Below are positions 5,286 to 14,903 of a stretch of 32,000 bases of DNA, in pieces. The position numbers and the translations under genes were made by a program. Positions within the stretch are counted from its first letter, which is position 1; each line of letters begins with the position of its first letter. The DNA is from Pseudomonadota bacterium. Its GTDB lineage: Bacteria; Myxococcota_A; Polyangia; Polyangiales; Polyangiaceae. The notes under the pieces are model-generated. The model was not told the origin of the DNA, did not search any database, and saw only the letters and a list, made by a program, of their open reading frames with translations. Location: assembly GCA_023423895.1 (NCBI GenBank), contig JAFAER010000267.1, positions 1 through 32,000 of the forward strand. Direction: 5' to 3'.

Positions 5286-5516
5286 GACGAGCAGCGTAAC
5301 TCGCCCGACGAGAGGGAAGCTAAAATCTCGCGCACACTGCAGCTAATTCTGTGTCCGCTCGTCGGGACTCTCGCGGAGACGAGCCGAAGGCCCTCGAGCG
5401 AGGTATTTCGGGACACCCGAGGGATGGATATCGGGGCCCGCCTTCACCCGAGCGGCGGCCCTACCTCGGAGGGGACATCTTGGCGCCAGCGGCCGAAACA
5501 GGCCTATTTTCAGGCG

Positions 5517-5598
5517 GAAGTCAGGCGACTCGAACACCATACCTTGCGGTACGCACCGGGTAGCGGCCGGGCCCGCGACCATTCGCGGTTTGACTTCC
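5517..5598 (-). tRNA. tRNA-Ser(GCU)-like, class II, non-canonical
   Basis: Minus strand: acceptor GGAAGUC/GACUUCC, anticodon loop CCGCUAC on a 4-bp CCGG stem, variable hairpin UGCG-UAC-CGCA, T-loop UUCGAGU. C33 and short stems lower confidence. Confidence 0.5.
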
Positions 5599-5660
5599 AT
5601 AAGCAGATGTCCGGACGGCTCGTCCGGAGCAGGTCGCTGCGGGGGCCGGAGGGCATCGGT

Positions 5661-5733
5661 ACGGGGCGAGAGGATCGAACTCTCCTGTGCCTGCTCGTGA
5701 GGCAGGTGTCATCACCAGATGAGCGAGCCCCGC
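5661..5733 (-). tRNA. tRNA-Val(CAC)
   Basis: Acceptor GCGGGGC/GCCCCGU, anticodon arm CCUGC-CUCACGA-GCAGG, T arm GAGAG-UUCGAUC-CUCUC. The D arm is atypical (UCAUC-UGGU-GAUGA). Confidence 0.65.
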
Positions 5734-5828
5734 ATGGCTTCGAGACGTGACGGTCGGCGGTCTCTGGGAGTCGTCGCCCGGCTCGTGCCCGGCCTCGTGA
5801 TAGGCGGGGCGTCGGGTCGTCTCGAGGC

Positions 5829-5899
5829 TCCGGAGGAGGGAATTGCACCCCCACCCCAGCGGTTCAAAGCCGCGGATCCTGCTGTTGGAACACTCCGGA
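5829..5899 (-). tRNA. tRNA-Gln(UUG), G55 T-loop variant
   Basis: Acceptor UCCGGAG/CUCCGGA (7 bp), anticodon loop CUUUGAA, T arm GGGGG-UGCAAUU-CCCUC. Confidence 0.6.
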
Positions 5900-5925
5900 A
5901 TGGGTGGCTCAGCGAGTGAGCCGGT

Positions 5926-5993
5926 CGCTGCGGGCAGAGTCGAACTGCCTGGACCGCGCTCATGAGGCGCGCCCTCCTCCGAGGACCGCAGCG
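5926..5993 (-). tRNA. tRNA-Met(CAU) type, short D arm (68 nt)
   Basis: Acceptor CGCUGCG/CGCAGCG, anticodon arm CGCGC-CUCAUGA-GCGCG, T arm GGCAG-UUCGACU-CUGCC. The D arm is reduced to UCC-UCGGA-GGA. Confidence 0.6.
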
Positions 5994-6038
5994 GAGGTCC
6001 GCGCTCGACGTGTGCACGTGCGTGCGTGCTGGGCGAGA

Positions 6039-6108
6039 GCGGTGACCGAGAATCGCACTCGGATCTCGAGCGTGGCGTGCTCGGGTTCTGCTCTTGAACT
6101 ATCACCGC
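6039..6108 (-). tRNA. tRNA-Gly(GCC), G55 T-loop variant
   Basis: Acceptor GCGGUGA/UCACCGC, D arm GUUC-AAGAGCA-GAAC, anticodon arm CGAGC-ACGCCAC-GCUCG (C33), T arm CCGAG-UGCGAUU-CUCGG. Confidence 0.6.
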
Positions 6109-6137
6109 AGGATCGGGCCACGTGGAACCCGCGTCGA

Positions 6138-6210
6138 GCCGCCCGAGGGAATTGCACCCTCCTCGTTCCTCGCTACCAGTGAGGTGCCCCGCTGTCTGGG
6201 CGTGGGCGGC
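6138..6210 (-). tRNA. tRNA-Thr(GGU), G55 T-loop variant
   Basis: Acceptor GCCGCCC/GGGCGGC, D arm GCCC-AGACAGCG-GGGC, anticodon loop CUGGUAG, T arm GAGGG-UGCAAUU-CCCUC. Confidence 0.6.
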
Positions 6211-6223
6211 ACGTGAAATAGTC

Positions 6224-6270
6224 GCTCGTCCTCGAGTCATTGCCTCACGAGGCCCCTCGTGAGGACGAGC
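6224..6270 (-). terminator. composite hairpin in the rsr 3' region (terminator or processing structure)
   Basis: Plus-strand gctcgtcctc (6224-6233) pairs with gaggacgagc (6261-6270), enclosing the inner stem acgagg/cctcgt. On the minus strand it lies ~70 nt after the rsr stop and is followed by GACUAUUUCACGU. Confidence 0.3.
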
Positions 6271-6341
6271 AGGTCGACGGCAACGAGGGACGTGCGGTCG
6301 ACATGACCGCCACGGGCATTTGCCGTAGGTTCGAGAGCCGA

Positions 6342-7955
6342 TCACACGGCGATTGACTCGATCGCCTGGAGAAACGCCGCTCCGTCCGCGTCGTCGCTCG
6401 CGAAGGAGGCGACGAGGTCGAAGACGGCATCGGAGAAACCTCCGACGTTCAACACGTCGGAGCGGGTCTGCACTTGCGTCGTCGCGTACGGTTGGAGGTC
6501 CACGAGAACGAGCTTCGCGCGCGGGTTGCTCGCGCGGAGTCGGTCCCACTCCTCCGCCATCACGGTTCCGCGCGTCGCGCTGCTGCCGGAGTCGGCGGAG
6601 CGCGGCGCCAGCCTGAAGTCAGCCCAGGACTGGTTGTCGGAGACAAAGACGACCACGTCGGGCGCGGTTCCACGAGCGTTGAGCCACCGTAGCGGCGCAG
6701 CGCACGAGGTCCCGCCGCTCGGGAGCGACGACAGCAACTCGGCATTGGTGACGACCGAGTCGAGTGCGTTCAGCGGACGCGGAAGCTGCACGACGTCGTC
6801 CGAGAAGGGCAGCACCGTCGCGTGCTCGTTCTTGCGAAGGAGCGCGGCGGTCGCCAGCGCGGCGACGTCGATGCAGCGGACCTTCGAGGTGGCCGTCCCT
6901 CGATGGCCTGTGACGGGCGAGTGCATCGACCCGGAGACGTCGGGACAGAGCGCAACGGAGCCCGGGATCGCGGGCACGTTGCCGACGGCGTGCTCGACGG
7001 CGCGAGCCAGCGCGCTGACGATTACCGGCGGCATGCTCTGCTCGACGGCGCGATACGTTGCGAGCAGCTGATACGGGAGCGTGCGCGAGCGCCTCACGGC
7101 GTCGGCGTCCGAGAGCTGCTCGGCGACGAGCTCGACGATCGCGGGGTCGGTGAAGACGCCGTGACGGTAGAGCGTGTTCAGATTTTGGCGGAGCTGGTTG
7201 AACGTCATCTTCTTCGCCAGCTCGGTCCAGTGCGCCGCGCGCAGAGGGAGAGCGGTAAGCATCTCGAACGGCACGTCGGGCAGCGGCTTCCGATCGTTCT
7301 TCTTCCAGGCCTCGAAGGCCTGGGTGAGCGGCGGCAGCTTCGAGCAGTCCACGTTCTTTCCGATGAGGTAGCCGTAGAGGGCCTCACGGACGGCATCGGC
7401 TTCGCCCTTCCCCCCGACGGCGTTCCGCGGGGGAGGACGAACCATCTTGATGACGTCCGACATGGACGGGCTCTGACCGATGGACTGGCGGAAGATGGTC
7501 TCGGGGCTCCTTGCTGCGAACCATTCGCGGAGAGCCCGTTTGGGCGCCGACCCGAACGACTTGCGGCCGGTGACTCCAGAACGGACGATCGCGACGAACG
7601 CACGCAACATCCGCGCATCGTCGATGACGCGCGGGAACACGCGGAGCATGAGCGAGACGTCGTGGGCGGCGAGCCAGGCGACGAGGAACGCGGGGACGTC
7701 CTTCATCCTGCCGTGCTCACGACAGTAGACAGCCGTCTTCGCGACGAGCTCGGGGCGGACGGCGCTCGCGAGCTCCGCGACCTTGTCGAGCTGCTGCTGA
7801 CCGGTCGCGTAGAACGTGCGATGGAACGTCCCGGTCACCGCATACTGCGCGAGCGCATGCTCGGGCGAGAGCGCGTATGCCGGACCTCCGGCCTCGTTGC
7901 GAGCATCGGCCACGGGCGCTTTGCGTGCGTGACCAAAAAGATGTGTGTTCGGCAT
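6342..7955 (-). CDS. rsr: Ro60 ortholog: TROVE domain plus vWA domain with MIDAS motif
   Basis: 537 aa. The N-terminal region is typical of TROVE/Ro60 (NEAGGPAYALSPEHALAQYAVTGTFHRTFYA). The C-terminal vWA has a DVSGSM MIDAS-like motif. AAGGAG Shine-Dalgarno sits 6 nt upstream of the ATG. Confidence 0.85.
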   Translation of the reverse strand: MPNTHLFGHARKAPVADARNEAGGPAYALSPEHALAQYAVTGTFHRTFYATGQQQLDKVAELASAVRPELVAKTAVYCREHGRMKDVPAFLVAWLAAHDVSLMLRVFPRVIDDARMLRAFVAIVRSGVTGRKSFGSAPKRALREWFAARSPETIFRQSIGQSPSMSDVIKMVRPPPRNAVGGKGEADAVREALYGYLIGKNVDCSKLPPLTQAFEAWKKNDRKPLPDVPFEMLTALPLRAAHWTELAKKMTFNQLRQNLNTLYRHGVFTDPAIVELVAEQLSDADAVRRSRTLPYQLLATYRAVEQSMPPVIVSALARAVEHAVGNVPAIPGSVALCPDVSGSMHSPVTGHRGTATSKVRCIDVAALATAALLRKNEHATVLPFSDDVVQLPRPLNALDSVVTNAELLSSLPSGGTSCAAPLRWLNARGTAPDVVVFVSDNQSWADFRLAPRSADSGSSATRGTVMAEEWDRLRASNPRAKLVLVDLQPYATTQVQTRSDVLNVGGFSDAVFDLVASFASDDADGAAFLQAIESIAV

Positions 7956-8050
7956 GACGACTCCTTTCCGAGCGAGGGCGTGTTCGGCCGTGCGCGTGCT
8001 CGAGCGCGCGACCGTGTGATTCCGGTCGATGAATGAACGAGAGACGAGGC

Positions 8051-8123
8051 GTTCCCGACGGGATTCGAACCCGTGTTCCTGGATTGAGAGCCCAGAGTCC
8101 TTGGCCGCCTAGACGACGGGAAC
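8051..8123 (-). tRNA. tRNA-Glu(CUC)
   Basis: Acceptor GUUCCCG/CGGGAAC, D arm GUC-UAGGCGGCCAAG-GAC, anticodon arm CUGGG-CUCUCAA-UCCAG, T arm ACGGG-UUCGAAU-CCCGU. Confidence 0.85.
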
Positions 8124-8135
8124 AGTGGAGATGAA

Positions 8136-8262
8136 GGTCGTCCGAGTGACTCGAGCATCGGTGTTGACTTGGGAATCGAACCCAAACCGTCAGCCTGGAA
8201 AGCTGATGTCCTGACCATTTGGACGAGTCGAGTGCGTGTGAGCTCGGGTCGAGCGGACGACC
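8136..8262 (-). ncRNA. stem-clamped tRNA-like RNA (unit 0), Y-RNA-like candidate
   Basis: A perfect 9-bp closing helix GGUCGUCCG (8262-8254) / CGGACGACC (8144-8136). Next comes a 3x3 internal loop (CUC vs ACU), then helix 2 GACCCGAGC/GCUCGAGUC (8 of 9 bp) and an ACACGCA linker. The stem encloses D, anticodon (UCC) and T arms but no proper acceptor stem. Confidence 0.55.
8162..8233 (-). tRNA. tRNA-Gly(UCC)-like core of unit 0 (acceptor stem degenerate)
   Basis: D arm GUCC-AAAUGGUCA-GGAC, anticodon arm UCAGC-UUUCCAG-GCUGA, T arm UUGGG-UUCGAUU-CCCAA. Only 3-4 of 7 acceptor positions can pair. Confidence 0.4.
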
Positions 8263-8266
8263 TGGA

Positions 8267-8337
8267 TGCAGCGGCTGGAGTCGCACCAGCGTCTCGAGCG
8301 TATGAAGCTCGCGGGGTGGCTCCTCCCCCACGCTGCG
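8267..8337 (-). tRNA. tRNA-Met(CAU) type with C1xA72 mismatch, G55 T-loop variant
   Basis: 5' strand CGCAGCG vs 3' strand CGCUGCA (C1/A72 unpaired, an initiator-like feature). D arm GGGG-AGGAGCCA-CCCC, anticodon arm CGAGC-UUCAUAC-GCUCG, T arm GCUGG-UGCGACU-CCAGC. CCA is encoded. Confidence 0.65.
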
Positions 8338-8382
8338 ATGACGCTCCGAAGCCGAGAGCAGTGCTCTCGGTCTCCAGAGGGC

Positions 8383-8453
8383 ACCTCCGCCGGGAGTCGA
8401 ACCCGGGAGAACGAGCTTCGGATGCTCGACCCTGATTCCGTCAGGACGAAGGT
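8383..8453 (-). tRNA. tRNA-Arg(CCG)
   Basis: Acceptor ACCUUCG/CGGAGGU (one G-U), anticodon arm CGAGC-AUCCGAA-GCUCG, T arm CCGGG-UUCGACU-CCCGG. Confidence 0.75.
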
Positions 8454-8484
8454 AGATGATGGAGACAGATGCTGAATGTTTGGC

Positions 8485-8555
8485 CTCCCCGCTAGGAATC
8501 GAACCTAGACAACCGGCTTCGTAGACCGATGCATGGAATCCACCACGACGAGGAG
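8485..8555 (-). tRNA. tRNA-Arg(ACG)
   Basis: Acceptor CUCCUCG/CGGGGAG, anticodon arm UCGGU-CUACGAA-GCCGG, T arm CUAGG-UUCGAUU-CCUAG. CCA is encoded. Confidence 0.75.
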
Positions 8556-8576
8556 AAACGAAAATCGAGCGACAGA

Positions 8577-8664
8577 GGAAGAAAGAGGTCTCGAACCCCA
8601 CACCCTCGGTGAAGGGTGCGCTTTGCTTTCGAAGCAAGCCTGGCTCCCAGCCAGTTTTTCTCCC
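8577..8664 (-). tRNA. tRNA-Ser(CGA), class II
   Basis: Acceptor GGGAGAA/UUCUUCC, D arm CUGG-CUGGGAG-CCAG, anticodon arm CUUGC-UUCGAAA-GCAAA, long variable hairpin CACCCU-UCACCG-AGGGUG, T-loop UUCGAGA. Confidence 0.7.
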
Positions 8665-8671
8665 GAGAAGT

Positions 8672-8743
8672 GGTCGGTGAGGGAATCGAACCCCCTACGC
8701 AGAGCTTTTCAAACTCCCGCTCTACCATTCGAGCTTACCGACC
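8672..8743 (-). tRNA. tRNA-Phe(GAA)
   Basis: Acceptor GGUCGGU/ACCGACC, D arm GCUC-GAAUGGUA-GAGC, anticodon arm GGAGU-UUGAAAA-GCUCU, T arm GGGGG-UUCGAUU-CCCUC. Confidence 0.9.
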
Positions 8744-8752
8744 CTGTGACAC

Positions 8753-8790
8753 CGTTGGCGCGTTGCGCCCCGTTGCGCCTCGTTGCGCGT
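8753..8790. repeat. four tandem copies of CGTTG(C/G)CG at 8-10-bp spacing in a tRNA spacer
   Basis: cgttggcg cgttgcgc cc cgttgcgc ct cgttgcgc, read directly between tRNA-Phe and tRNA-Ser(GGA). Confidence 0.7.
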
Positions 8791-8815
8791 CGCGGACACG
8801 TCAGGGCCGCGGAGA

Positions 8816-8902
8816 GGAAGGCAGAGGACTCGAACCCCACGCGGACGATGGCCGCGCGAATCGCGTTCCAGACGATCTCCGCCCCTGGCGGATTTGCCTT
8901 CC
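8816..8902 (-). tRNA. tRNA-Ser(GGA), class II
   Basis: Acceptor GGAAGGC/GCCUUCC, anticodon arm AUCGU-CUGGAAC-GCGAU, variable hairpin CGCGG..CCGCG, T-loop UUCGAGU. Confidence 0.75.
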
Positions 8903-8955
8903 GTGTTCGTGTATCGATTCGTTCGAGCTCGCACGGCGTGCGGAACGAGCGCGGT

Positions 8956-9029
8956 CAGGACGGCAGGATTCGAACCTGCGGTCTCCAGTCCCCCAGACTG
9001 GCGCTTTTGCCTGGCTAAGCTACGCCCTG
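8956..9029 (-). tRNA. tRNA-Pro(GGG)
   Basis: Acceptor CAGGGCG/CGUCCUG (C1-G72), D arm GCUU-AGCCAGGCAA-AAGC, anticodon arm CCAGU-CUGGGGG-ACUGG, T arm GCAGG-UUCGAAU-CCUGC. Confidence 0.85.
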
Positions 9030-9077
9030 AGATGCCGGCGCGTGACGGCTTCGTGAATGGGTGGATGTCGCGCGAGG

Positions 9078-9114
9078 CGAGAAGAATAGGAGGTCCAGTT
9101 TCACGTCTTGGACC
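9078..9114 (-). terminator. candidate intrinsic terminator after the HNH gene
   Basis: Minus-strand hairpin GGUCCA-(11 nt)-UGGACC followed by UCCUAUUCUUCU. A second 8-bp hairpin (GUCGUGGC/GCCACGAC) lies just upstream. Confidence 0.35.
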
Positions 9115-9170
9115 AGGACGCGGGAGCGTGTGTCGTGGCGCGGGCCACGACGCATCGATGCGTCGACGTC

Positions 9171-9773
9171 TCAGGCAGAGAGCGAAGCCGGCGCAGTGTA
9201 GCCGTCGCAGTACGGCTGCCAGACATCCGGCAGCTCACTCTCGTCGAGACGGATCGGCGGCACGACGGGCAGCGAGGTCGGCTTCTTCGGCTGCCGCAGC
9301 AGCTTCATGCCGGCCTGCTCAGGCGTGCGGCTCCCCTTGCGATCATTGCAGGCGTAGCAGGAGGTCACGATGTTCTCCCAGACGGTCTTGCCTCCCCGAA
9401 CACGCGGGATGACGTGGTCGTAGTTCAGTTGCTTCATCGGCTTCTTCTCGCCGCAGTACTGGCAACGGAACTTGTCCCGCGTGAACACGTTCAACCGGGA
9501 GAAGCGGACCGACTGCTTCGTCGACACCGACCCCTTCTTCAGGCGGACGACGGCGGGGGCGAGCATCGCGAAGCTCGGGGCGCGGAGCTCCGCGTCCCAG
9601 GTCTCGATGACTTCGACCTTGTCGAGGTAAGCCAGCACGACGGCGCGCTGCCAGGGAATGATCTTGTGAGGCGCCATCCAGGGGGTCAGCATCAGCGTTT
9701 GCATGGGGATCACCGTTTCTTTCTCGTTCTCACGGCTCGTTCTCCTTTCGGAGGTGTTGAAGGAGTCGTGCAC
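9171..9773 (-). CDS. HNH endonuclease (COG1403-like, ~180 aa class)
   Basis: CQYCG..(N)LNYDHVIPRVRGGKTVWENIVTSCYACNDRKG is a classic HNH/zinc-ribbon core. The N-terminal MQTLMLTPWMAPHKIIPWQRAV matches the usual start of this family, so ATG 9704 is the likelier start. Confidence 0.85.
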   Translation of the reverse strand: MHDSFNTSERRTSRENEKETVIPMQTLMLTPWMAPHKIIPWQRAVVLAYLDKVEVIETWDAELRAPSFAMLAPAVVRLKKGSVSTKQSVRFSRLNVFTRDKFRCQYCGEKKPMKQLNYDHVIPRVRGGKTVWENIVTSCYACNDRKGSRTPEQAGMKLLRQPKKPTSLPVVPPIRLDESELPDVWQPYCDGYTAPASLSA

Positions 9774-9847
9774 GATGCACGACGACAGAAGCGCAAAGGG
9801 ATGGACGTGTGACCGGACGCTGAGGCGGCGCGTGGATGGCGCGCAGT

Positions 9848-9931
9848 GTCACCGGAGGGAGTCGAACCCTCAAACTCCATGCGGAGCCCAGCATCTCGGG
9901 CTGGTGTGTATTCCAATTCCACCACAGTGAC
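9848..9931 (-). tRNA. tRNA-Leu(GAG), class II
   Basis: Acceptor GUCACUG/CGGUGAC, anticodon arm CCAGC-CCGAGAU-GCUGG (C33), variable hairpin CUCC-GCAU-GGAG, T arm GAGGG-UUCGACU-CCCUC. Confidence 0.75.
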
Positions 9932-9998
9932 GTATTCGCGTGACGTATCGCGTCCGGTCGCTCCCGGCGGATGGCCGAGGTGCGATGGGGACGTTGGT

Positions 9999-10073
9999 AC
10001 CGACGGAGGGATTCGAACCCTCACAACACACAGTTTCTGAGACTGCGGCCTCTACCAGTTGGGCCACGTCGGC
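9999..10073 (-). tRNA. class-I-sized tRNA-like gene with CAG (Leu-type) anticodon
   Basis: Acceptor GCCGACG/CGUCGGU, anticodon arm GCAGU-CUCAGAA-ACUGU, 7-nt variable region GUGUUGU (no long arm), T arm GAGGG-UUCGAAU-CCCUC. The D stem is imperfect. CCA is encoded. Confidence 0.5.
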
Positions 10074-10117
10074 TCGAGGCGTGCTCCGCGTCCGCTCGAG
10101 GCGTGCGCGTGCGTGGT

Positions 10118-10191
10118 CTGTGCAGGAGGATTCGAACCTCCAATCCCTCCGACCCGAACGGAGTGCTCTAGCCAGGTTGAGCCATGCACAG
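10118..10191 (-). tRNA. tRNA-Pro(CGG)
   Basis: Acceptor CUGUGCA/UGCACAG, D arm GCUC-AACCUGGCUA-GAGC, anticodon arm CUCCG-UUCGGGU-CGGAG, T arm GGAGG-UUCGAAU-CCUCC. CCA is encoded. Confidence 0.9.
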
Positions 10192-10233
10192 AGGACCAGC
10201 GAAGCCCGACGGGAGCTCGAGCGTGGCTGGGGT

Positions 10234-10303
10234 GGACAAGTCGGGAGTCGCACCCGATCCATCTGCTTGCAAGGCAGACGTCTCCCCTCGGAGACAAGCC
10301 CGT
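10234..10303 (-). tRNA. tRNA-Ala(UGC)-like element with no pairable acceptor stem
   Basis: Anticodon arm UCUGC-CUUGCAA-GCAGA and T arm UCGGG-UGCGACU-CCCGA are clear. The D region is a 6-bp hairpin GUCUCC-GAGG-GGAGAC. The two ends carry the same-sense GACAAG instead of complementary strands. The right boundary is approximate. Confidence 0.35.
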
Positions 10304-10354
10304 GATGATGATGACGGCGGTCCGTCGCTGGAATCGCAGCGGTCCGTGCCCGGT

Positions 10355-10426
10355 GCGGCGCGCAGGGATCGCACCTGCCTCCTCCTGCTCGTCATGCAGG
10401 CGCAGTCGCTAGACTGCCAGCGCCGC
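10355..10426 (-). tRNA. tRNA-Val(GAC), G55 T-loop variant
   Basis: Acceptor GCGGCGC/GCGCCGC, D arm GCAG-UCUAGCGA-CUGC, anticodon arm CCUGC-AUGACGA-GCAGG, T arm GCAGG-UGCGAUC-CCUGC. Confidence 0.8.
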
Positions 10427-10489
10427 TCTCGCTGTTCGACCCCAGGGTGCAAACGTGCACACGTTTGTACGTCTGTCCCTCGCGTCGGT

Positions 10490-10561
10490 GGATCACCTGC
10501 GAATCGAACGCAGTGCGGGCTCCTTATCAGAGAGTCCAGGGTGACCAACCCGTCGTGATCC
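10490..10561 (-). tRNA. tRNA-Ile(GAU)
   Basis: Acceptor GGAUCAC/GUGAUCC, anticodon loop CUGAUAA on stem CUCU/GGAG, T arm CUGCG-UUCGAUU-CGCAG. Confidence 0.7.
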
Positions 10562-10603
10562 CGTGCTCCGTAGAGCTCGCGTTGCTGCCCGAGCGACGCG
10601 GGA

Positions 10604-10671
10604 GAGCCGAGAGGGAGTTGAACCCTCGCGCACCGTGTTGCAGACGGCGATCCTCGCCGGAGAATCGGCTC
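10604..10671 (-). tRNA. tRNA-Cys(GCA)
   Basis: Acceptor GAGCCGA/UCGGCUC, short D arm, anticodon arm GCCGU-CUGCAAC-ACGGU, T arm GAGGG-UUCAACU-CCCUC. Confidence 0.7.
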
Positions 10672-10738
10672 GAAGAAGTGGGCGCAGTTCCTCGTGGGCC
10701 GACGTCACGTGAGCGTCGGCGGTGGGGGGCTGCGCGGA

Positions 10739-10808
10739 GCGGGCAGAGGGAGTCGCACCCTCATTGTCAGTTTGGAAGACTGCGGTCCTGCTGTTGGACG
10801 ATGCCCGC
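10739..10808 (-). tRNA. tRNA-Gly(UCC), G55 T-loop variant
   Basis: Acceptor GCGGGCA/UGCCCGC, D arm GUCC-AACAGCA-GGAC, anticodon loop CUUCCAA, T arm GAGGG-UGCGACU-CCCUC. Confidence 0.75.
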
Positions 10809-11241
10809 GAGTGGTGGTGGTGTGTGAATGGTGTGGCCGGAGATGGGGGAGCAAAAGTGGGGATGCGGTTCCGAAATCGCAAGTCTCGACGAAGGTGATG
10901 AAGACATGGTGCTCGGCGGCGGATCGCTGCCTCTGCACCGTCGGCACATTGGAGCCGCCCGTGAGGGCTGCTCCCGTTCGCCCCGCAATAGGGAAGTTCA
11001 CCGAAGTGGTCTCCCGAGAGCGCCCGGCTGGAGTCTGCGGGGCGCTCTCTGACTTCCCCTATGCCATCGCTAGATCGGTCGCCCGACCGTCGCTACCTTA
11101 GGACCGTTATAGTTACGGATGTAGTCCTCATCGGCATTCGAGACCGACGACGCTTGCTCGTGTCGTGTGAGATCCTTCTTGGTGTGCGGACGACGTCGCG
11201 TACGACGACGTCGTCGAAGTGAATGGATGAAGGTGGTTGGT
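10809..11241 (-). ncRNA. structured non-tRNA insert in the array (candidate ncRNA containing a 23S rRNA H69-H71-like segment)
   Basis: No tRNA fits. There is a three-way structure at 10988-11062: AUAGGGGAAGU/ACUUCCCUAU closing GAGAGCGCCC/GGGCGCUCUC and a CAC-UUCG-GUG hairpin. A T-arm-like hairpin UCGGU-CUCGAAU-GCCGA lies at 11131-11147, plus the rRNA-identical 29-mer. Orientation is assumed from the surrounding array. Confidence 0.4.
11090..11118 (-). other. 29-nt perfect copy of the conserved 23S rRNA helix 69/70 segment (contains the I-CeuI homing site)
   Basis: Minus strand reads CCGUAACUAUAACGGUCCUAAGGUAGCGA. From memory this is identical to E. coli 23S about 1908-1936 (H69 loop with U1911/1915/1917) and includes TAACTATAACGGTCCTAAGGTAGCGA. 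The downstream GUCGGG..GACC..GAUGGC loosely echoes H71. Confidence 0.75.
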
Positions 11242-11313
11242 GGAGCCGGCCGGACTCGCACCGGCAGCCTCCTCGATGCCATCGAGGCGCTCTCCTCGCT
11301 GAGCTACGGCCCC
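11242..11313 (-). tRNA. tRNA-Ala(GGC), G55 T-loop variant
   Basis: Acceptor GGGGCCG/CGGCUCC with G3-U70, D arm GCUC-AGCGAGGA-GAGC, anticodon arm CCUCG-AUGGCAU-CGAGG, T arm GCCGG-UGCGAGU-CCGGC. CCA is encoded. Confidence 0.8.
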
Positions 11314-11353
11314 GTTCGTTTCGTGGCGTGGTCTTACTGTTCTATGCGCGGGT

Positions 11354-11423
11354 GGAGCGACGGGGAATCGCACCCCGATCCCTGCAGTGCGAATGCAGCG
11401 TTCTCCTGTTGAACTATCGCCCC
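11354..11423 (-). tRNA. tRNA-Ala(CGC), G55 T-loop variant
   Basis: Acceptor GGGGCGA/UCGCUCC with G3-U70, D arm GUUC-AACAGGA-GAAC, anticodon arm CUGCA-UUCGCAC-UGCAG, T arm CGGGG-UGCGAUU-CCCCG. Confidence 0.8.
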
Positions 11424-11480
11424 GTGCCATGATCCGTTCGTCGACGGCGACACGACGTTCATGACGAGAATGGGAGGGGC

Positions 11481-11550
11481 AGGCCGCGAAGGAATCGAAC
11501 CCTCTCTCCGGGGGTTGGAATCCCGGCTGGTCGCCATGACTCTACGGCCT
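11481..11550 (-). tRNA. tRNA-Trp(CCA) (alternative reading Gly-UCC)
   Basis: Acceptor AGGCCGU/GCGGCCU with A1-U72 and G73. The best anticodon-arm fold is CGGGA-UUCCAAC-CCCCG (A31xC39). T arm GAGGG-UUCGAUU-CCUUC. Confidence 0.6.
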
Positions 11551-11595
11551 ATCTTGTGTGCGGGAACATGGGGATGGCGATCCCTCGACGTTGGC

Positions 11596-11666
11596 GACCC
11601 ATACCGAAATCGAATCGGTCTCACGCCGTAGACAGCGGCGCTGCGACACCAGTCGCATCATGGGCC
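11596..11666 (-). tRNA. tRNA-Asp(GUC)
   Basis: Acceptor GGCCCAU/AUGGGUC, anticodon arm CGCCG-CUGUCUA-CGGCG, T arm ACCGA-UUCGAUU-UCGGU. The D region is a GCGAC-UGGU-GUCGC hairpin. CCA is encoded. Confidence 0.75.
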
Positions 11667-11702
11667 AGAAGCTCTGGAACCTTGGTACTTCTTCTTGCGG
11701 GC

Positions 11703-11773
11703 GTCCCCGGCAGGAGTCGAACCTGCGTCGGCTGGTTTAGAAGACCAGCGCCTATCCGCTCGGCCACGAGGAC
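11703..11773 (-). tRNA. tRNA-Arg(UCU)
   Basis: Acceptor GUCCUCG/CGGGGAC, anticodon arm CUGGU-CUUCUAA-ACCAG, T arm GCAGG-UUCGACU-CCUGC. Close paralog of the next gene. Confidence 0.85.
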
Positions 11774-11810
11774 GTGCGGTCAGCGACGGCGGCCGAAGCG
11801 TGGTGTGGGC

Positions 11811-11881
11811 GTCCCCGGCAGGAATCGAACCTGCGTCGACCGGCTCAGGAGACCGGAGCCTGTCCGCTCGGCCACGAGGAC
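11811..11881 (-). tRNA. tRNA-Arg(CCU)
   Basis: Same acceptor and D arm as the previous gene. Anticodon arm CCGGU-CUCCUGA-GCCGG, T arm GCAGG-UUCGAUU-CCUGC. Confidence 0.85.
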
Positions 11882-11928
11882 CAGACCATGCGTTGACCGA
11901 GAGCCGAGCGAGGTGACGCGCGGCCGGG

Positions 11929-12000
11929 GTAGCGTACGGGAATCGCACCCGCCTCCACTGAGTCACAATCAGTCCTCGTCACTAGACGAGTAACGCTACC
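11929..12000 (-). tRNA. tRNA-His(GUG) with encoded G-1, G55 T-loop variant
   Basis: Acceptor GUAGCGU/ACGCUAC preceded by G(-1) opposite C73. D arm CUCG-UCUAGUGA-CGAG, anticodon arm ACUGA-UUGUGAC-UCAGU, T arm GCGGG-UGCGAUU-CCCGU. Confidence 0.85.
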
Positions 12001-12086
12001 GTGTATTCTTGTGCTCATCGAGGTTGTTCGTGTCAACCCGCCTTTGGAGCGAATCGTTCGCTTTCGATGATTGTCGATTGGTTGGT

Positions 12087-12157
12087 GCTCCCGATCGGAA
12101 TCGAACCGATACCTTCCGCTTGAAAGGCGGAGATCCTGACCACTAGATGACGGGAGC
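12087..12157 (-). tRNA. tRNA-Glu(UUC)
   Basis: Acceptor GCUCCCG/CGGGAGC, anticodon arm UCCGC-CUUUCAA-GCGGA, T arm AUCGG-UUCGAUU-CCGAU. CCA is encoded. Confidence 0.85.
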
Positions 12158-12407
12158 GAGGAATGAAGCGAGCCCCGGACGAGCCGAGGGATGTCGTCGC
12201 AGGCGCTCGCGCTTTCGGCTCGTTGGCCGAAGGGCGAGCTTCGGGCGGCACCGGTCACGCGCGAGCGAACGAGAGCGCGCGCCGGTACGGAAGAGGAGCG
12301 CCTCGTCGGACGCGGGCCCGCGAGGCGTGGAGCTCAGATGTGAGCTCGGCAAGCTCGCCGGCGTCGGGGAGAGGTGTGTGGGACCGACGCGCGAGCTGCT
12401 GGAGAGG

Positions 12408-12623
12408 TTTCTCACCCGAGTGAAAAAGCCTTTGGATTGAACCATCTTCAAGGATGAGGCCTTTACCAATTAGGCTATCGCTGCATTTGGTCCGGTCGTG
12501 ACCGGGCGCTCTCGTATGAGAGCCGACGATGGACGTCGCGGTGACGAGCACCGTGTGCAGCGAGTCGGATTCGAACCGACAATTTCTCGATTGCGTGTAG
12601 GGCATCTTCGGGCGGGTGAGAAA
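12408..12623 (-). ncRNA. circularly permuted tRNA-like RNA, unit 1 (YrlA/Y-RNA-like candidate)
   Basis: Minus strand read 5'->3'. Closing strand UUUCUCACCCG (12623-12613), CCC, helix-2 strand GAAGAUGCC, then CUACACGCAAU linker. T arm GUCGG-UUCGAAU-CCGAC (12580-12564), acceptor 3' strand UCGCUGC (12563-12557), and a 72-nt hairpin-rich cap. Acceptor 5' strand GCAGCGA (12484-12478), D arm GCC-UAAUUGGUAAA-GGC, hairpin UCAUC-CUUGAA-GAUGG. It ends GGCUUUUUC, ACU, closing strand CGGGUGAGAAA (12418-12408). Confidence 0.6.
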
Positions 12624-12726
12624 GATCGTGGGCGCTCGAGCCAAGCTCAGCGGAGCGGCGAGCGGCGAAGGCGAAGGCGAGCTCGGGACGATGACGGAGG
12701 AGCCCGCGTCCGAGCGCGGCGTGGGT

Positions 12727-12803
12727 CCCTCGTGATGGAATCGAACCACCTGCCGAAAGGCACCGGGTTACAGCCGGCTGCTCCGCCATGGAGCGAACGA
12801 GGG
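12727..12803 (-). tRNA. tRNA-Tyr(GUA), class II
   Basis: Acceptor CCCUCGU/ACGAGGG, D arm GCUC-CAUGGCG-GAGC, anticodon arm GCCGG-CUGUAAC-CCGGU, variable hairpin GCC-UUUC-GGC, T arm GGUGG-UUCGAUU-CCAUC. Confidence 0.85.
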
Positions 12804-12822
12804 AGGACGAGGGATGAGAGGG

Positions 12823-12989
12823 ATCACCCGAGTGGGAAAGCCGTCATTCGTCTGAAAGGACGAGCGCCTTGACCATTAGGCTACGCTGGAAGGAGTAGTA
12901 GCGCGTGGGCTCGAGCGAGCTCGAGGTTCCAGCGGTCGGAATCGAACCGACGTCTCTCATTGCGTGTAGGGCCTTCGCGGCCGGGTGAT
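12823..12989 (-). ncRNA. circularly permuted tRNA-like RNA, unit 2 (YrlA/Y-RNA-like candidate)
   Basis: Minus strand read 5'->3'. Closing AUCACCCG (12989-12982), GCCGC, GAAGGCC, CUACACGCAAU linker. T arm GUCGG-UUCGAUU-CCGAC (12951-12935), acceptor 3' strand CGCUGGA (12934-12928) followed by ACC, then a 37-nt cap with the CUCGAG-CUCG-CUCGAG hairpin. Acceptor 5' strand UCCAGCG (12890-12884), D arm GCC-UAAUGGUCAA-GGC, hairpin UCGUC-CUUUCA-GACGA. It ends GGCUUUC, CCACU, CGGGUGAU (12830-12823). Confidence 0.6.
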
Positions 12990-12992
12990 GGA

Positions 12993-13063
12993 GCCCACGT
13001 CCGGAATCGAACCGGATCCTCCCGTGTACGAGGCGGGCGCTCGGCCAGTCGAGCTGCGCGGGC
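12993..13063 (-). tRNA. tRNA-Thr(CGU)
   Basis: Acceptor GCCCGCG/CGUGGGC, D arm GCUC-GACUGGCC-GAGC, anticodon arm CCCGC-CUCGUAC-ACGGG (C31xA39), T arm UCCGG-UUCGAUU-CCGGA. CCA is encoded. Confidence 0.75.
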
Positions 13064-13205
13064 AAAAGGCCGTACGTCATCCCGGTACGGCGGACGGGCG
13101 AAGTGAAACCGCGAGGGTCCCACGGAAAAAGGTGCTCGCGGTGCGCGCGGCGCTCTCGAGAGGAGAGCGCGCACGCCGGCGCGCGCGGGGGAAAGTCGAG
13201 AGGAG

Positions 13206-13362
13206 GCTCGTCCGAGTGAAGAGAGCCTTGCGATGTGCTCGTGTGCGAAACGAGTGCCTTTTCCGTTTGGCTGGCGGCCCTTTGCCTTTCGGCGAGGTGG
13301 ACCACGTTGGATTCGAACCAACATGTCGTGCGTGTGTGGCCTGTTCGAACGGACGAACGAGC
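13206..13362 (-). ncRNA. circularly permuted tRNA-Ala-like RNA, unit 3 (YrlA/Y-RNA-like candidate)
   Basis: Minus strand read 5'->3'. Closing UCGUCCG (13356-13350), UUC, GAACAGGCC, ACACACGCA linker. T arm GUUGG-UUCGAAU-CCAAC (13322-13306), acceptor 3' strand GUGGUCC (13305-13299) followed by ACC, then an 18-nt cap GCC-GAAA-GGC. Acceptor 5' strand GGGCCGC (13280-13274, giving G3-U70), D arm GCC-AAACGGAAAA-GGC, anticodon arm CUCGU-UUCGCAC-ACGAG (CGC). It ends GGCUCUCUUC, ACU, CGGACGA (13214-13208). Confidence 0.6.
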
Positions 13363-13433
13363 TCCAGCGGAAGGAATCGAACCTTCGAATGACCGGTTAA
13401 CAGCCGGCTGCCTGACCATTCGGCTTCGCTGGA
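13363..13433 (-). tRNA. tRNA-Asn(GUU)
   Basis: Acceptor UCCAGCG/CGCUGGA (identical to the unit 2 acceptor), anticodon arm GCCGG-CUGUUAA-CCGGU, T arm GAAGG-UUCGAUU-CCUUC. Confidence 0.85.
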
Positions 13434-13587
13434 ATGTGTGCTCGTCGCGTCCGTGCGTGCTGCTGCCGTCTCGGCGAATCCGATCTCTTCCGAGGCGGGA
13501 CGACGAAGCGGTCAGCGCGCACGGACGCGACGAGCTTTTTGGCGCCAAGTTGTCAGAGAGCGAGGGACGTCGTGAGACGTCCGCGGT

Positions 13588-13657
13588 TCCGGGCACAGGA
13601 TTCGAACCTGTCTTCCTGGATTCAGAGACCAGTGTCCTGCCGCTAGACGAGCCCGGA
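13588..13657 (-). tRNA. tRNA-Gln(CUG)
   Basis: Acceptor UCCGGGC/GCCCGGA (U1-A72), D arm GUC-UAGCGGCAG-GAC, anticodon loop CUCUGAA, T arm ACAGG-UUCGAAU-CCUGU. Confidence 0.75.
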
Positions 13658-13716
13658 GCAGGAGCGGCGTGCCGAAGGCGCACGTCGCCTGTGGCCGCGT
13701 CCTTCGACGCGGCGGT

Positions 13717-13788
13717 AGGTCCGGAGGGGGTCGAACCCTCACCACCCCGATTAAGAGTCGGGTGCGCTTCCACTTGCGCTACGGACCC
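13717..13788 (-). tRNA. tRNA-Lys(CUU)
   Basis: Acceptor GGGUCCG/CGGACCU, D arm GCGC-AAGUGGAA-GCGC, anticodon arm CCCGA-CUCUUAA-UCGGG, T arm GAGGG-UUCGACC-CCCUC. Confidence 0.85.
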
Positions 13789-14092
13789 GTGACGAGAAGC
13801 GCGCGTTGCTGTTCGTGTCGGAAAGAGCGAGCGCGCCTTCGGTATTGCTTGGGCGCGCCCGACGGTCATGTCGCGTGCAAGCCGGATCCGCATGAGGATC
13901 CCGCGATGCAGCGACGTCGCCGAGTCGAAGACGAGGACGTCGAGGACCATGGGGGTCGAGCCACGCGTCGTGACCGATGCTCGGTGACGAGCGAGAGAGG
14001 GGTAGGGGAGAGAGTCGAGTCGCGAAAAGACGAGCGTGGTGTGCGCCGCCGCGACGCCAGCGACGTGTCTGCCGGCGCGCGGCGCAGGGGGG

Positions 14093-14164
14093 GGGGCGCG
14101 AGGGGGTCGAACCCTCATCCCTCGGCTTAAAAGGCCGGTGCTCGGCCGATTGAGCTAGCGCCCC
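14093..14164 (-). tRNA. tRNA-Lys(UUU), first gene of the array
   Basis: Acceptor GGGGCGC/GCGCCCC, D arm GCUC-AAUCGGCC-GAGC, anticodon loop CUUUUAA, T arm GAGGG-UUCGACC-CCCUC. Confidence 0.8.
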
Positions 14165-14903
14165 ATGAATCGCGTTTGAGAACGCGACGTGGACTTAGAT
14201 TCCTAGCTTGAGAAACATGATCGAACCTGTCGACAAAGTCGTATTGTTAGGCATGGCCGAATCGGGCCGCGCCAGTAGGGAGGATCGAACGGCGCCGAAG
14301 CGAGGAAGGCCGCTCCGGTCAGCCTTCTGTTCCGCGAGACCATGGCCCGGCGGCCTCCTCGGACGGGGCGGCGATGCCGCAGTCCGACGAGAAGGGAGCT
14401 CGAGCGCCGTCGAGGTGGCGGCGCGCCATCGGCTGATGATGCGCAGAAAATCCCGGCCCAGAAACGCCGAAGGCCACCTCGGGGACTACCCCGGGCGGCC
14501 TCTGCGAACGGCTCCGAACGATGGAGACGATACGAGGGACCGCTAGGGGTCGCCTTCCTCCTGGTTTGCGCTCGGACCGAGCGGACGAGGGGCGGCGAAC
14601 ATGCGGCTCTGGGCCTGATCGAGGCCGTCGAAGCCGCCAAGGATGGCAGGGGAGGCAGAGATGGACGGAGAGGCGGAGCGCGGGACGGAGGTCCGGCAGC
14701 TCTGGCCAGCGACGAACCCACCCGAGGTGGGTCGGCGCCACGCGCGATGCGACCGTCCCTCGGACGCGAGATACGTCACGCCGTTGCGCTCTTGCGCTCC
14801 AGCGGCCGTCCTCTTGTCTTTCAGGGAGATGATCACGCGAGTCGAACACGCCCGGGACCTCCGGAACGTGCCTCCATGTGGAGAAGGGGTTGCTGTTTCT
14901 AGA

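Follow-up and report, generated by a model that had tools for sequence, protein, structure and literature searches.

Y RNAs have a long stem formed by their 5' and 3' ends; Ro60/Rsr proteins bind to a site on this stem, where recognition depends mainly on the 5' strand (PMC4201824; bioRxiv 10.1101/312249). Bacterial Y RNA genes are found no more than a few kb from rsr on the same strand, and a tRNA-like effector domain occurs in the Y RNAs of more than 250 species (PMC4201824; bioRxiv 10.1101/312249). Nearly all YrlA candidates reported by Chen et al. 2014 are located less than 4 kb from rsr on the same strand (PMC4201824). YrlA, the family that includes the YrlA RNAs of S. Typhimurium and M. 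smegmatis, is a circularly permuted tRNA mimic that runs in the order V, T arm, closed acceptor stem-loop and D arm, and it 'lacks the anticodon loop' (bioRxiv 10.1101/312249). Yrn1 of D. radiodurans has its D- and T-like arms in the order opposite to that of YrlA, separated by an anticodon-like arm with a stem of 5 bp and a loop of 6 nt (PMC4201824), so that the end-pairing stem takes the place of the acceptor. Yrn2, tRNA-Asp and Yrn1 are co-transcribed in D. radiodurans (PMC4201824). Since both the Ro-binding module and the orientation of the tRNA differ between YrlA and Yrn1, Chen et al. argued that the two are of independent origin (PMC4201824).

The DNA described here (the window) is a stretch of 32,000 nt with 66% G+C. 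ARAGORN identifies 34 tRNA genes in it, which lie between 5658 and 14164 and are all encoded on the minus strand. A first-pass annotation had noticed at 8136-8262 a tRNA-like body enclosed by a stem (unit 4), and had proposed that the same protein-docking-like stem is also carried by three permuted units (units 1-3). The stem module was correctly recognized. What had been overlooked is a Ro60/Rsr gene 181 nt downstream of the 3' end of unit 4, on the same strand and with only tRNA-Glu(ctc) between, and the RNA class was left unnamed. With a Ro60/Rsr gene at this distance, the 'protein-docking stem' most likely corresponds to the stem by which a bacterial Y RNA binds Rsr. By analogy with the described systems, the minus strand of 8136-8262 thus probably encodes a bacterial Y RNA, the noncoding partner of the downstream-encoded Rsr (probability about 0.85). 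One putative Rsr-binding module, as recognized from its sequence, is reused on two tRNA topologies within the 34-tRNA array.

Architecture of unit 4 and of the shared stem module

The features of the locus are given in Table 1. Unit 4 is composed, from 5' to 3', of GGUCGUCCG-CUC-GACCCGAGC-UC-ACACGCA-CUC-GAC-UC-D arm-A-anticodon arm-CGGU-T arm-GUC-AACACCGAU-GCUCGAGUC-ACU-CGGACGACC. The perfect 9-bp repeat, the 3x3 CUC/ACU loop, the second helix and ACACGCA were all found where the first-pass annotation had placed them, as were the D, anticodon (UUUCCAG) and T arms in normal order. The outer helix (H1) is perfect over 9 bp, or 10 bp counting A8263/U8135, and the inner helix (H2) has 8 of 9 pairs and one C•A mismatch. 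The paired RNA ends form a bipartite stem of about 21 bp (H1, 3x3 loop, H2), as is characteristic of Y RNAs. All three arms and the elbow nucleotides (G18 G19, UUCGAUU) are present. The acceptor, said to be unable to pair (3-4 of 7 positions), has 4 of 7 pairs in the canonical register, and only GAC/GUC beside the T stem forms. H1 and H2 both reappear in the minimum free energy fold of unit 4, whose z-score relative to dinucleotide-shuffled sequences is -2.9. About 1% of random window positions have a perfect inverted repeat of 9 bp or more (35-nt flanks, 73-nt gap), so the repeat by itself is weak evidence.

Table 1. Positions of unit 4, its parts, its neighbours and units 1-3 in the window
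Feature	Position	Strand	Remarks
rsr, Ro60 orthologue, 537 aa	6342..7955	-	Pfam TROVE and vWA_Ro60
tRNA-Glu(ctc)	8048..8123	-	Between unit 4 and rsr; ARAGORN
Unit 4, H1 3' strand CGGACGACC	8136..8144	-	Pairs with GGUCGUCCG
Unit 4, internal loop 3' side ACU	8145..8147	-	NCU then CGG conserved
Unit 4, H2 3' strand GCUCGAGUC	8148..8156	-	Pairs with GACCCGAGC
Unit 4, GUC (acceptor stub 3' side) and joining strand AACACCGAU	8157..8168	-	AACACCGAU varies in sequence and length among orthologues
Unit 4, T arm UUGGG / UUCGAUU / CCCAA	8169..8185	-	
Unit 4, anticodon arm UCAGC / UUUCCAG / GCUGA	8190..8206	-	Stem conserved
Unit 4, D arm GUCC / AAAUGGUCA / GGAC	8208..8224	-	Loop with G18 G19
Unit 4, acceptor-stem remnant 5' side GAC	8227..8229	-	3 bp with GUC 8166-8168
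Unit 4, ACACGCA, single-stranded	8233..8239	-	Most conserved element; preceded by UC
Unit 4, H2 5' strand GACCCGAGC	8242..8250	-	Inner CGAGC invariant in 8/8 orthologues
Unit 4, internal loop 5' side CUC	8251..8253	-	3x3 loop, opposite ACU
Unit 4, H1 5' strand GGUCGUCCG	8254..8262	-	5/9 pairs with compensatory changes among orthologues
tRNA-Met(cat)	8263..8337	-	Directly 5' of unit 4, same transcript direction; same place in all orthologous loci
Unit 1	12408-12623	-	Stem module and permuted body: T arm, closed 8-bp acceptor with an insert of ~75 nt, D arm, 6-nt-loop hairpin
Unit 2	12823-12989	-	Stem module and permuted tRNA-like body
Unit 3	13206-13358	-	Stem module and permuted tRNA-like body; un-permuted, called tRNA-Ala(cgc) by ARAGORN

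The rsr product has D. radiodurans Rsr (2NVO, 6e-16) as its top PDB match, followed by human and Xenopus Ro60, and unit 4 lies within about 4 kb of this TROVE gene on the same strand, as expected of a Y RNA gene. H1 begins one base past the CCA end of tRNA-Met (8263), and 12 nt separate its 3' strand from the 5' end of tRNA-Glu(ctc). Similarly, unit 2 begins one base past the CCA of tRNA-Thr. Pfam scans of the window ORFs identified ordinary chromosomal genes in the flanks of the window.

The stem module consists of H1, a 3-nt/3-nt loop, H2, YY and ACACGCA. The minus strand of the window has four copies of ACACGCA, one in each unit; every copy is preceded by an H1-type helix that starts 29 nt upstream and, in all four units, is closed by YUC-ACU-CGG. 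The earlier claim that one stem is carried by two tRNA topologies is therefore borne out, the module and its 29-nt spacing being identical. Units 1-3, which are located 4.5-5.4 kb from rsr, run in the order T arm, closed 7-8-bp acceptor helix, D arm and anticodon-like hairpin. They are permuted, as had been proposed: once their halves are rejoined in tRNA order, ARAGORN calls a tRNA in 3/3 cases. The anticodon loops of units 1 and 2 are of 6 nt, and the 7-bp acceptors of units 2 and 3 are each followed by ACC; in the orthologues of unit 3, UCCACC is invariant. A conserved alanine identity pair, G3:U70, was considered for unit 3 and rejected, as L003, L008 and L094 have A3:U70. Among the Labilithrix-clade loci, the 29-nt 5' module (ACACGCA included) and the YUC-ACU-CGG 3' module were found on about 35 units with permuted, normal-order and non-tRNA bodies. 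A fifth stem in the window at 14588-14564 (repeat family D19) was discarded as a local palindrome with neither ACACGCA nor a tRNA body. In several loci, tRNA-Leu(gag) is enclosed by a different flanking stem; tRNA-enclosing stems at these loci are thus not unique to the ACACGCA units.

Conservation and alternative readings

A scan with the Rsr protein, one genome per species, yielded 80 loci. The closest of these (58-87% identity) belong to Labilithrix and related Polyangiales (Myxococcota), and the same tRNA array with an embedded rsr is found in L001-L005, L007 and L008. In this clade the island contains about 34 tRNAs, rsr, an HNH gene and 3-7 putative Y RNAs. In L001, L002, L004 and L007, an orthologue of unit 4 occupies the slot between tRNA-Met(cat) and tRNA-Glu(ctc). 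No unit 4 was found in the slot of L003 and L008, which is a 48-nt spacer, or in that of L005, which holds unrelated sequence; its absence from the sister loci L003 and L008 indicates that the unit is dispensable.

A covariance model (R1) was built from five sequences and scored 132-150 bits with its own members and at most 48.5 bits with ordinary tRNAs (1.49 Mb of loci). No further normal-order member was identified by R1 among 82 genome and phage loci. A metagenome scan with a sequence pattern independent of rsr yielded 24 loci. Three of them fit R1 (109-137 bits). These were the only array-linked ones, and two of them have a detectable rsr. The order in L094 is tRNA-Met, unit, tRNA-Glu, rsr, and L099 has the same order with a truncated rsr. 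The third, L089, has tRNA-Met directly upstream of the unit, and its contig ends right after the unit, before the positions of tRNA-Glu and rsr. The remaining 21 of the 24 loci had no R1 match and no rsr, and were dismissed as chance matches to ordinary tRNAs. Unit 4 is thus present in the Labilithrix clade in the window and in seven other genomes or metagenome contigs. The slot tRNA-Met(cat), unit, tRNA-Glu(ctc), rsr is kept in 8/8 as far as the contigs reach, and the adjacency of the unit to rsr is repeated in L001, L002, L004, L007, L094 and L099. The flanking repeat, on whose presence at orthologous loci the first-pass annotation had staked its proposal, was found there.

Unit 4 is a conserved structured RNA. 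In an alignment of the eight sequences (A2), whose fitting to R1 favours the structure, 97.1% of cells in H1, H2, the 3-bp stub and the D, anticodon and T stems are paired, and 13 of 34 pairs show compensatory changes on both sides. These values were reached by 0 of 500 column shuffles, and pairing fell to 26-41% when the 3' partners were slid by 1-3 columns. An independent MAFFT alignment (A1) likewise gave 97.1% pairing and 13 compensatory pairs. Every helix of unit 4 has compensatory changes among the orthologues; H1 and H2 hold eight such pairs, and even the 3-bp acceptor stub covaries (GAC/GUC to GAU/AUC in L007). The invariant or nearly invariant blocks are CGAGC-YY-ACACGC, GA-UCG-CCAA, GGGUUCGA, GCUCG and CUCGG. 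The 5' junction strand is conserved as ACACGC(A/C) and the 3' junction strand is variable, in keeping with the rule that recognition by Ro60 is mainly of the 5' strand. The covariation of H1 and H2 and the near-invariance of CGAGC-YY-ACACGC and CUCGG agree with the earlier proposal that the stem is the selected element. However, conservation extends to the elbow nucleotides and to the stems of all three arms; the tRNA-like body is under selection as well, and the stem is not the sole functional element.

Among the alternatives to a Y RNA, unit 4 could be a working tRNA-Gly(UCC), with the flanking stem as an RNase III-type processing signal that is removed in maturation. ARAGORN indeed calls tRNA-Gly(tcc) at 8160-8232, the Rfam tRNA model scores 42 bits (gathering threshold 29), the elbow and the anticodon-loop framework are intact, and ACC follows the 3' acceptor-like strand as in many tRNAs of the array. 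The Rfam match, however, covers only 8165-8229 and so leaves the acceptor ends unmatched, and ACC is not conserved in the orthologues. Neither a 7-bp acceptor with a free 3' end nor a conserved anticodon, as required of a canonical tRNA-Gly(UCC), was found. Only 3 bp of the acceptor are conserved, the Gly identity positions are missing from it, and the 3' strand continues into H2 and H1. The triplet at positions 34-36 is UCC in the window, CAG in L001, GUC in L002, GCA in L004, CGU in L094 and CCU in L007, while L089 and L099 have a 6-nt loop, UGCAAC; the anticodons of the neighbouring tRNA-Met(cat) and tRNA-Glu(ctc) are unchanged in every locus. U33 and A37 are kept in all six 7-nt loops. Across the set, the ARAGORN labels are Gly, Leu(cag), Asp(gtc), Arg(cct) and Thr, and some orthologues are missed. 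Given the drifting triplet, the regular tRNA-Gly(tcc) that ARAGORN places elsewhere in the array (10736-10808), and the lack of an acceptor stem and of a free 3' end, an ordinary tRNA-Gly is excluded, and a tRNA-Gly matured by removal of its stem is very improbable. As the earlier reading had it, unit 4 is no ordinary tRNA; it is most likely a tRNA mimic rather than a decoder, with no CCA end that could be presented and no usable acceptor stem. Its closest tRNA is tRNA-Glu(ttc), at 51 of 73 positions, and the next is Gly(tcc), which is not decisive for its parentage.

A functionless, decaying tRNA pseudogene between chance inverted repeats would account for the degenerate acceptor and for the missing unit in L003 and L008, and inverted repeats of this size do arise at random positions, as noted above. 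This explanation is scarcely credible for a unit that retains six helices, the 13 compensatory pairs and invariant single-stranded blocks in eight lineages (69-87% Rsr identity) and whose stem module recurs on about 35 units; the differences among the orthologues also exclude recent copies of one sequence. A third alternative is a stem that serves some purpose other than Rsr binding, either in processing or stability of the tRNA-rsr operon or in the regulation of rsr translation in cis; RNase P/Z would then enter at the tRNA body. Unit 4 does lie in the rsr leader region, some 180 nt upstream with one tRNA between, and tRNA-Leu(gag) has its own flanking stem in several loci. A leader element does not fit, however, with the identical module on units 1-3, 4.5-5.4 kb away from rsr, and the layout parallels that of canonical YrlA beside rsr in other phyla, which makes a purpose other than Rsr binding improbable.

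Comparison with YrlA, Yrn1 and other tRNA-like RNAs

No match to the Rfam Y RNA families was found at the gathering threshold in the whole window or at E <= 5 in 5400-14800, where only tRNA-clan and chance matches were obtained. Unit 4 was set side by side with Yrn1 on the basis of the published description of the latter. Both are located upstream of rsr, on the same strand and among tRNA genes (PMC4201824). In both, the ends pair into a Ro-binding stem (putative in unit 4) that closes a body whose D and T arms follow the normal tRNA order and flank an anticodon-like stem of 5 bp; this is the arrangement that defines the Yrn1 type. The 6-nt 'anticodon' loop of Yrn1 is also seen in two orthologues of unit 4. 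Yrn1 differs in its metazoan-like Ro helix (GGUCCGA type, both strands conserved), incomplete D arm and lack of a variable region, whereas unit 4 has the ACACGCA and ACU-CGG module, a complete D arm, a variable loop of 4-5 nt and usually a 7-nt anticodon loop. The segment GGUCGUCCG-CUC-GA resembles the metazoan GGUCCGA helix only loosely, and Rfam Y_RNA gave no match to it at E <= 5.

Canonical YrlA genes were located by a simple pattern search in 60-odd rsr loci of other phyla, where they are found 3' of rsr in 2-5 copies per locus and start with GRCGAAUGcc..ggaaCUACA. Six of them were folded, giving H1, an internal loop, an 8-bp H2, CUACA and a tRNA-like body. The Labilithrix units share with YrlA the layout H1-internal loop-H2-(C)UACA, the adjacency to rsr, the presence of several copies per locus and a tRNA-like effector domain with an intact elbow. 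Circular permutation of the tRNA mimic and a closed acceptor stem are further features that units 1-3 have in common with YrlA, but these units carry an extra anticodon-like hairpin, and their stem exits the body at the variable-arm rather than the anticodon-stem position. Unit 4 differs from YrlA, as it is not permuted, has a full anticodon arm and lacks a closed acceptor hairpin. The Labilithrix units are also located 5' of rsr inside a tRNA array, unlike YrlA, which is 3' of rsr in the 60-odd loci.

The YrlA motif GNCGAAUG is replaced by CCG-NYC-GA(A) in the Labilithrix units. At the GNCGAAN0-1G site, unit 4 has CCG-CUCGAC and units 1-3 have (G)NYCGAA(N)(A)G, compared with a strict GRCGAAUG in the canonical loci, and CGA is absent from this site in the unit-4 orthologues of L004, L007 and L094. 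The YUAY element is present as CUAC within C-CUACACGC in 6/8 orthologues and in units 1 and 2, and unit 4 of the window has UCAC. C-CUACACGCA of the Labilithrix units overlaps the YUAY/CUACA element of YrlA. Since GNCGAAN0-1G is only approximated, unit 4 is best classed as a probable Y RNA on the strength of its context and architecture, rather than as a strict member of either YrlA or Yrn1. Judged by its sequence, it joins the stem module found on units 1-3, which are permuted and YrlA-like, to the arm order of Yrn1.

The two topologies are less unprecedented than the first-pass annotation implied, as both had already been described, in YrlA and in Yrn1 (PMC4201824; bioRxiv 10.1101/312249). 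The RNA class is known; what is new is the occurrence of one stem module on normal-order, permuted and non-tRNA bodies in one lineage, a putative Y RNA with a complete anticodon arm and a freely drifting triplet, and the location of the whole set in a conserved array of about 34 tRNAs that also contains rsr. Full-text searches of the accessible literature yielded no publication that connects Ro60 or Y RNAs with tRNA arrays or with Myxococcota. The presence, in a single lineage, of the same Ro-type stem module on tRNA bodies of either orientation and on other bodies indicates that the two modules are recombinable. As a compact natural system, the locus lends itself to asking which features of the stem Rsr reads and which partners the tRNA mimic recruits. 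It is also a warning for annotation, because tRNA finders label such units as tRNA genes with arbitrary anticodons.

Units 1-3 resemble the permuted tRNA genes of algae and archaea in that the 3' half precedes the 5' half. In Cyanidioschyzon merolae, other algae and archaea, such genes give rise to decoding tRNAs via a circular intermediate and bulge-helix-bulge splicing. Units 1-3 differ in that the break is closed by a putative protein-binding stem and 2 of the 3 anticodon loops are of 6 nt, and unit 4 differs in having no permutation. Maturation by a ribozyme or by splicing (bulge-helix-bulge, twister/RtcB-type circularisation) was considered and dropped after the Ro60 gene had been found; no RtcB, RtcA or endonuclease domains were detected by Pfam in the scanned window ORFs. 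Unit 4 also resembles tmRNA and viral tRNA-like structures in being a tRNA-shaped domain within a larger RNA, which in those RNAs is recognised by tRNA enzymes. Both tmRNA and viral tRNA-like structures have a chargeable CCA end, which unit 4 lacks.

Proposed processing, function and origin

The tRNA array, the Y RNAs and rsr would be transcribed together as a polycistronic precursor, as suggested by their location on one strand and by a simple terminator scan, in which no site was listed from unit 4 through tRNA-Glu to the start of rsr. Units 4 and 2 start one base after the CCA of tRNA-Met and tRNA-Thr, respectively, which points to ends set by tRNA processing. Unit 4 would then be released by the enzymes that trim the 3' end of tRNA-Met and by the RNase P cut at the 5' end of tRNA-Glu. 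YrlA of M. smegmatis is cut by RNase P and receives CCA. By analogy, units 2 and 3 may also be cut by RNase P and given CCA, as their 7-bp acceptors followed by ACC and the invariant UCCACC of the unit-3 orthologues would permit, but unit 4 is predicted not to be.

If unit 4 is a Y RNA, its stem, and mainly the conserved 5' strand, would dock on the outer surface of the Rsr ring. Docking would stabilise the RNA and gate access to Rsr. In D. radiodurans, the stable accumulation of Yrn1 and Yrn2 depends on Rsr. The tRNA-shaped domain would act as an effector or tether that is recognised by proteins which bind tRNAs, for example TruB or Dus, and could possibly bind PNPase or another partner.

It is also possible, although doubtful, that the island is a site where Y RNAs repeatedly arise by fusion of a portable, putative Rsr-docking module to tRNA bodies, and that the anticodon arm is in use. 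The module may enter at the acceptor position, as in unit 4, at the variable-arm position, as in units 1-3, or on non-tRNA bodies, as elsewhere. Under this reading, the retention of U33 and A37 while the triplet changes from lineage to lineage would mean that the complete anticodon arm is used. The arm of unit 4 may be a decoy or tether for anticodon-directed enzymes, toxins or the ribosome, bringing Rsr-linked RNA decay there. If so, the anticodon arm would be the target-specifying part of these Y RNAs.

The unit-4 pattern gave 0 matches in viral contigs. A looser pattern for permuted units gave more than 120, none of them with Rsr, and these were rejected as chance matches for this reason. 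Despite the ordinary chromosomal genes in the flanks of the window, a phage link for the island is hinted at by Myxococcus phage Mx1, which encodes a 47%-identical Ro60 amid scattered tRNAs and an HNH gene.

Possible processing and concerted change of ACACGCA-type units

When un-permuted, unit 3, in which the ACACGCA stem module is joined to a permuted tRNA-like body, resembles tRNA-Ala(cgc). Position 3:70 is G3:U70 in the window and in L001, whereas it is A3:U70 in L003, L008 and L094 (all Polyangiales loci or metagenome contigs). In all five, the UCCACC behind the acceptor 3' strand is invariant, which suggests that unit 3 is cleaved by RNase P and completed with CCA, as is YrlA of M. smegmatis.

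A parallel change in the outer helix H1 was found in L007, a related Polyangiales locus, where H1 reads GUCAUCC in the orthologue of unit 4 (the predicted Y RNA with a normal-order tRNA-like body) and UUCAUCC in a permuted unit. Because both carry the identical G-to-A change together with its compensating partner, a concerted change of the Rsr-proximal helix is suggested, either via gene conversion or through co-evolution with the protein.

Additional ACACGCA-type units were found near rsr in L004 and L002. In one of these, the 7-bp acceptor is followed by an ACCA encoded in the gene. Two are entirely devoid of a tRNA-like module; therefore, the stem module is also found on non-tRNA bodies.

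Coordinates of the features discussed
Feature	Locus	Positions	Strand
34-tRNA array	window	5658-14164	minus
HNH endonuclease ORF, inside array	window	9773-9171	
tRNA-Leu(gag)	window	9846-9931	minus
Stem-enclosed region around tRNA-Leu(gag)	window	9814-9959	minus
Weak Rfam tRNA match	window	10233-10301	minus
tRNA-Met(cat), upstream of unit 4	window	8263-8337	minus
Second tRNA-Met(cat)	window	5923-5993	
Unit 3	window	13206-13358	minus
Unit 3 orthologues	L001	5049-5196	
	L003	4877-5024	
	L008	4660-4806	
	L094	222-404	
Unit-4 orthologue	L007	9743-9870	
Permuted unit	L007	6061-6226	
Extra ACACGCA-type units, near rsr	L004	8832-9016, 9139-9273, 9478-9618	
	L002	9708-9816	
Truncated rsr	L099	758-1535	minus

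RNA genes next to rsr at other loci

In the rsr loci L012-L080, canonical YrlA genes stand in tandem 3' of rsr (approximately 11,500-13,900), two to five at each locus, with the pattern GRCGAAUG...CUACA...GGUUCGANUCC. Their hosts are Acidobacteriota, Verrucomicrobiota, Planctomycetota and Alphaproteobacteria. Some of these genes terminate in ...GGUCCACCA, which resembles a tRNA 3' end.

On the metagenome contig L099, a truncated rsr adjoins an intact unit-4 orthologue. Residues 1-216 are 88% identical, followed by a frameshifted piece reaching approximately residue 261, and the downstream tRNAs come directly thereafter. Either a pseudogene or an error of assembly may account for this truncated rsr.

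The tRNA array and its setting

The array, which also contains rsr and an HNH endonuclease ORF, has ordinary genes of the chromosome on its flanks (Ser/Thr kinase, M18 aminopeptidase and sigma-54 activator), and its gene order is kept in at least seven Labilithrix-clade genomes. tRNA-Asp, located between Arg(tct) and Trp in relatives, is missing from the window array. Many array tRNAs have low Rfam scores, and in many the terminal NCC precedes a base that is not A. A weak Rfam tRNA match (29.6 bits) has no corresponding ARAGORN call.

A perfect 10-bp stem, GACCGGACGC/GCGUCCGGUC, surrounds the tRNA-Leu(gag) of the window, whose own acceptor stem is normal; ACACGCA is absent from this element. 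Stems of 7-10 bp, differing in sequence and similar in distance, flank the orthologous genes in L001, L002, L003 and L094, among which GGACGCGAUAC is also kept immediately 5' of the tRNA. The enclosing stem could be a processing stem or belong to another tRNA-embedding RNA.

Immediately upstream of unit 4, the tRNA-Met(cat) shows the C1xA72 mismatch typical of bacterial initiator tRNA, and positions 1 and 72 are paired in the second Met(cat).
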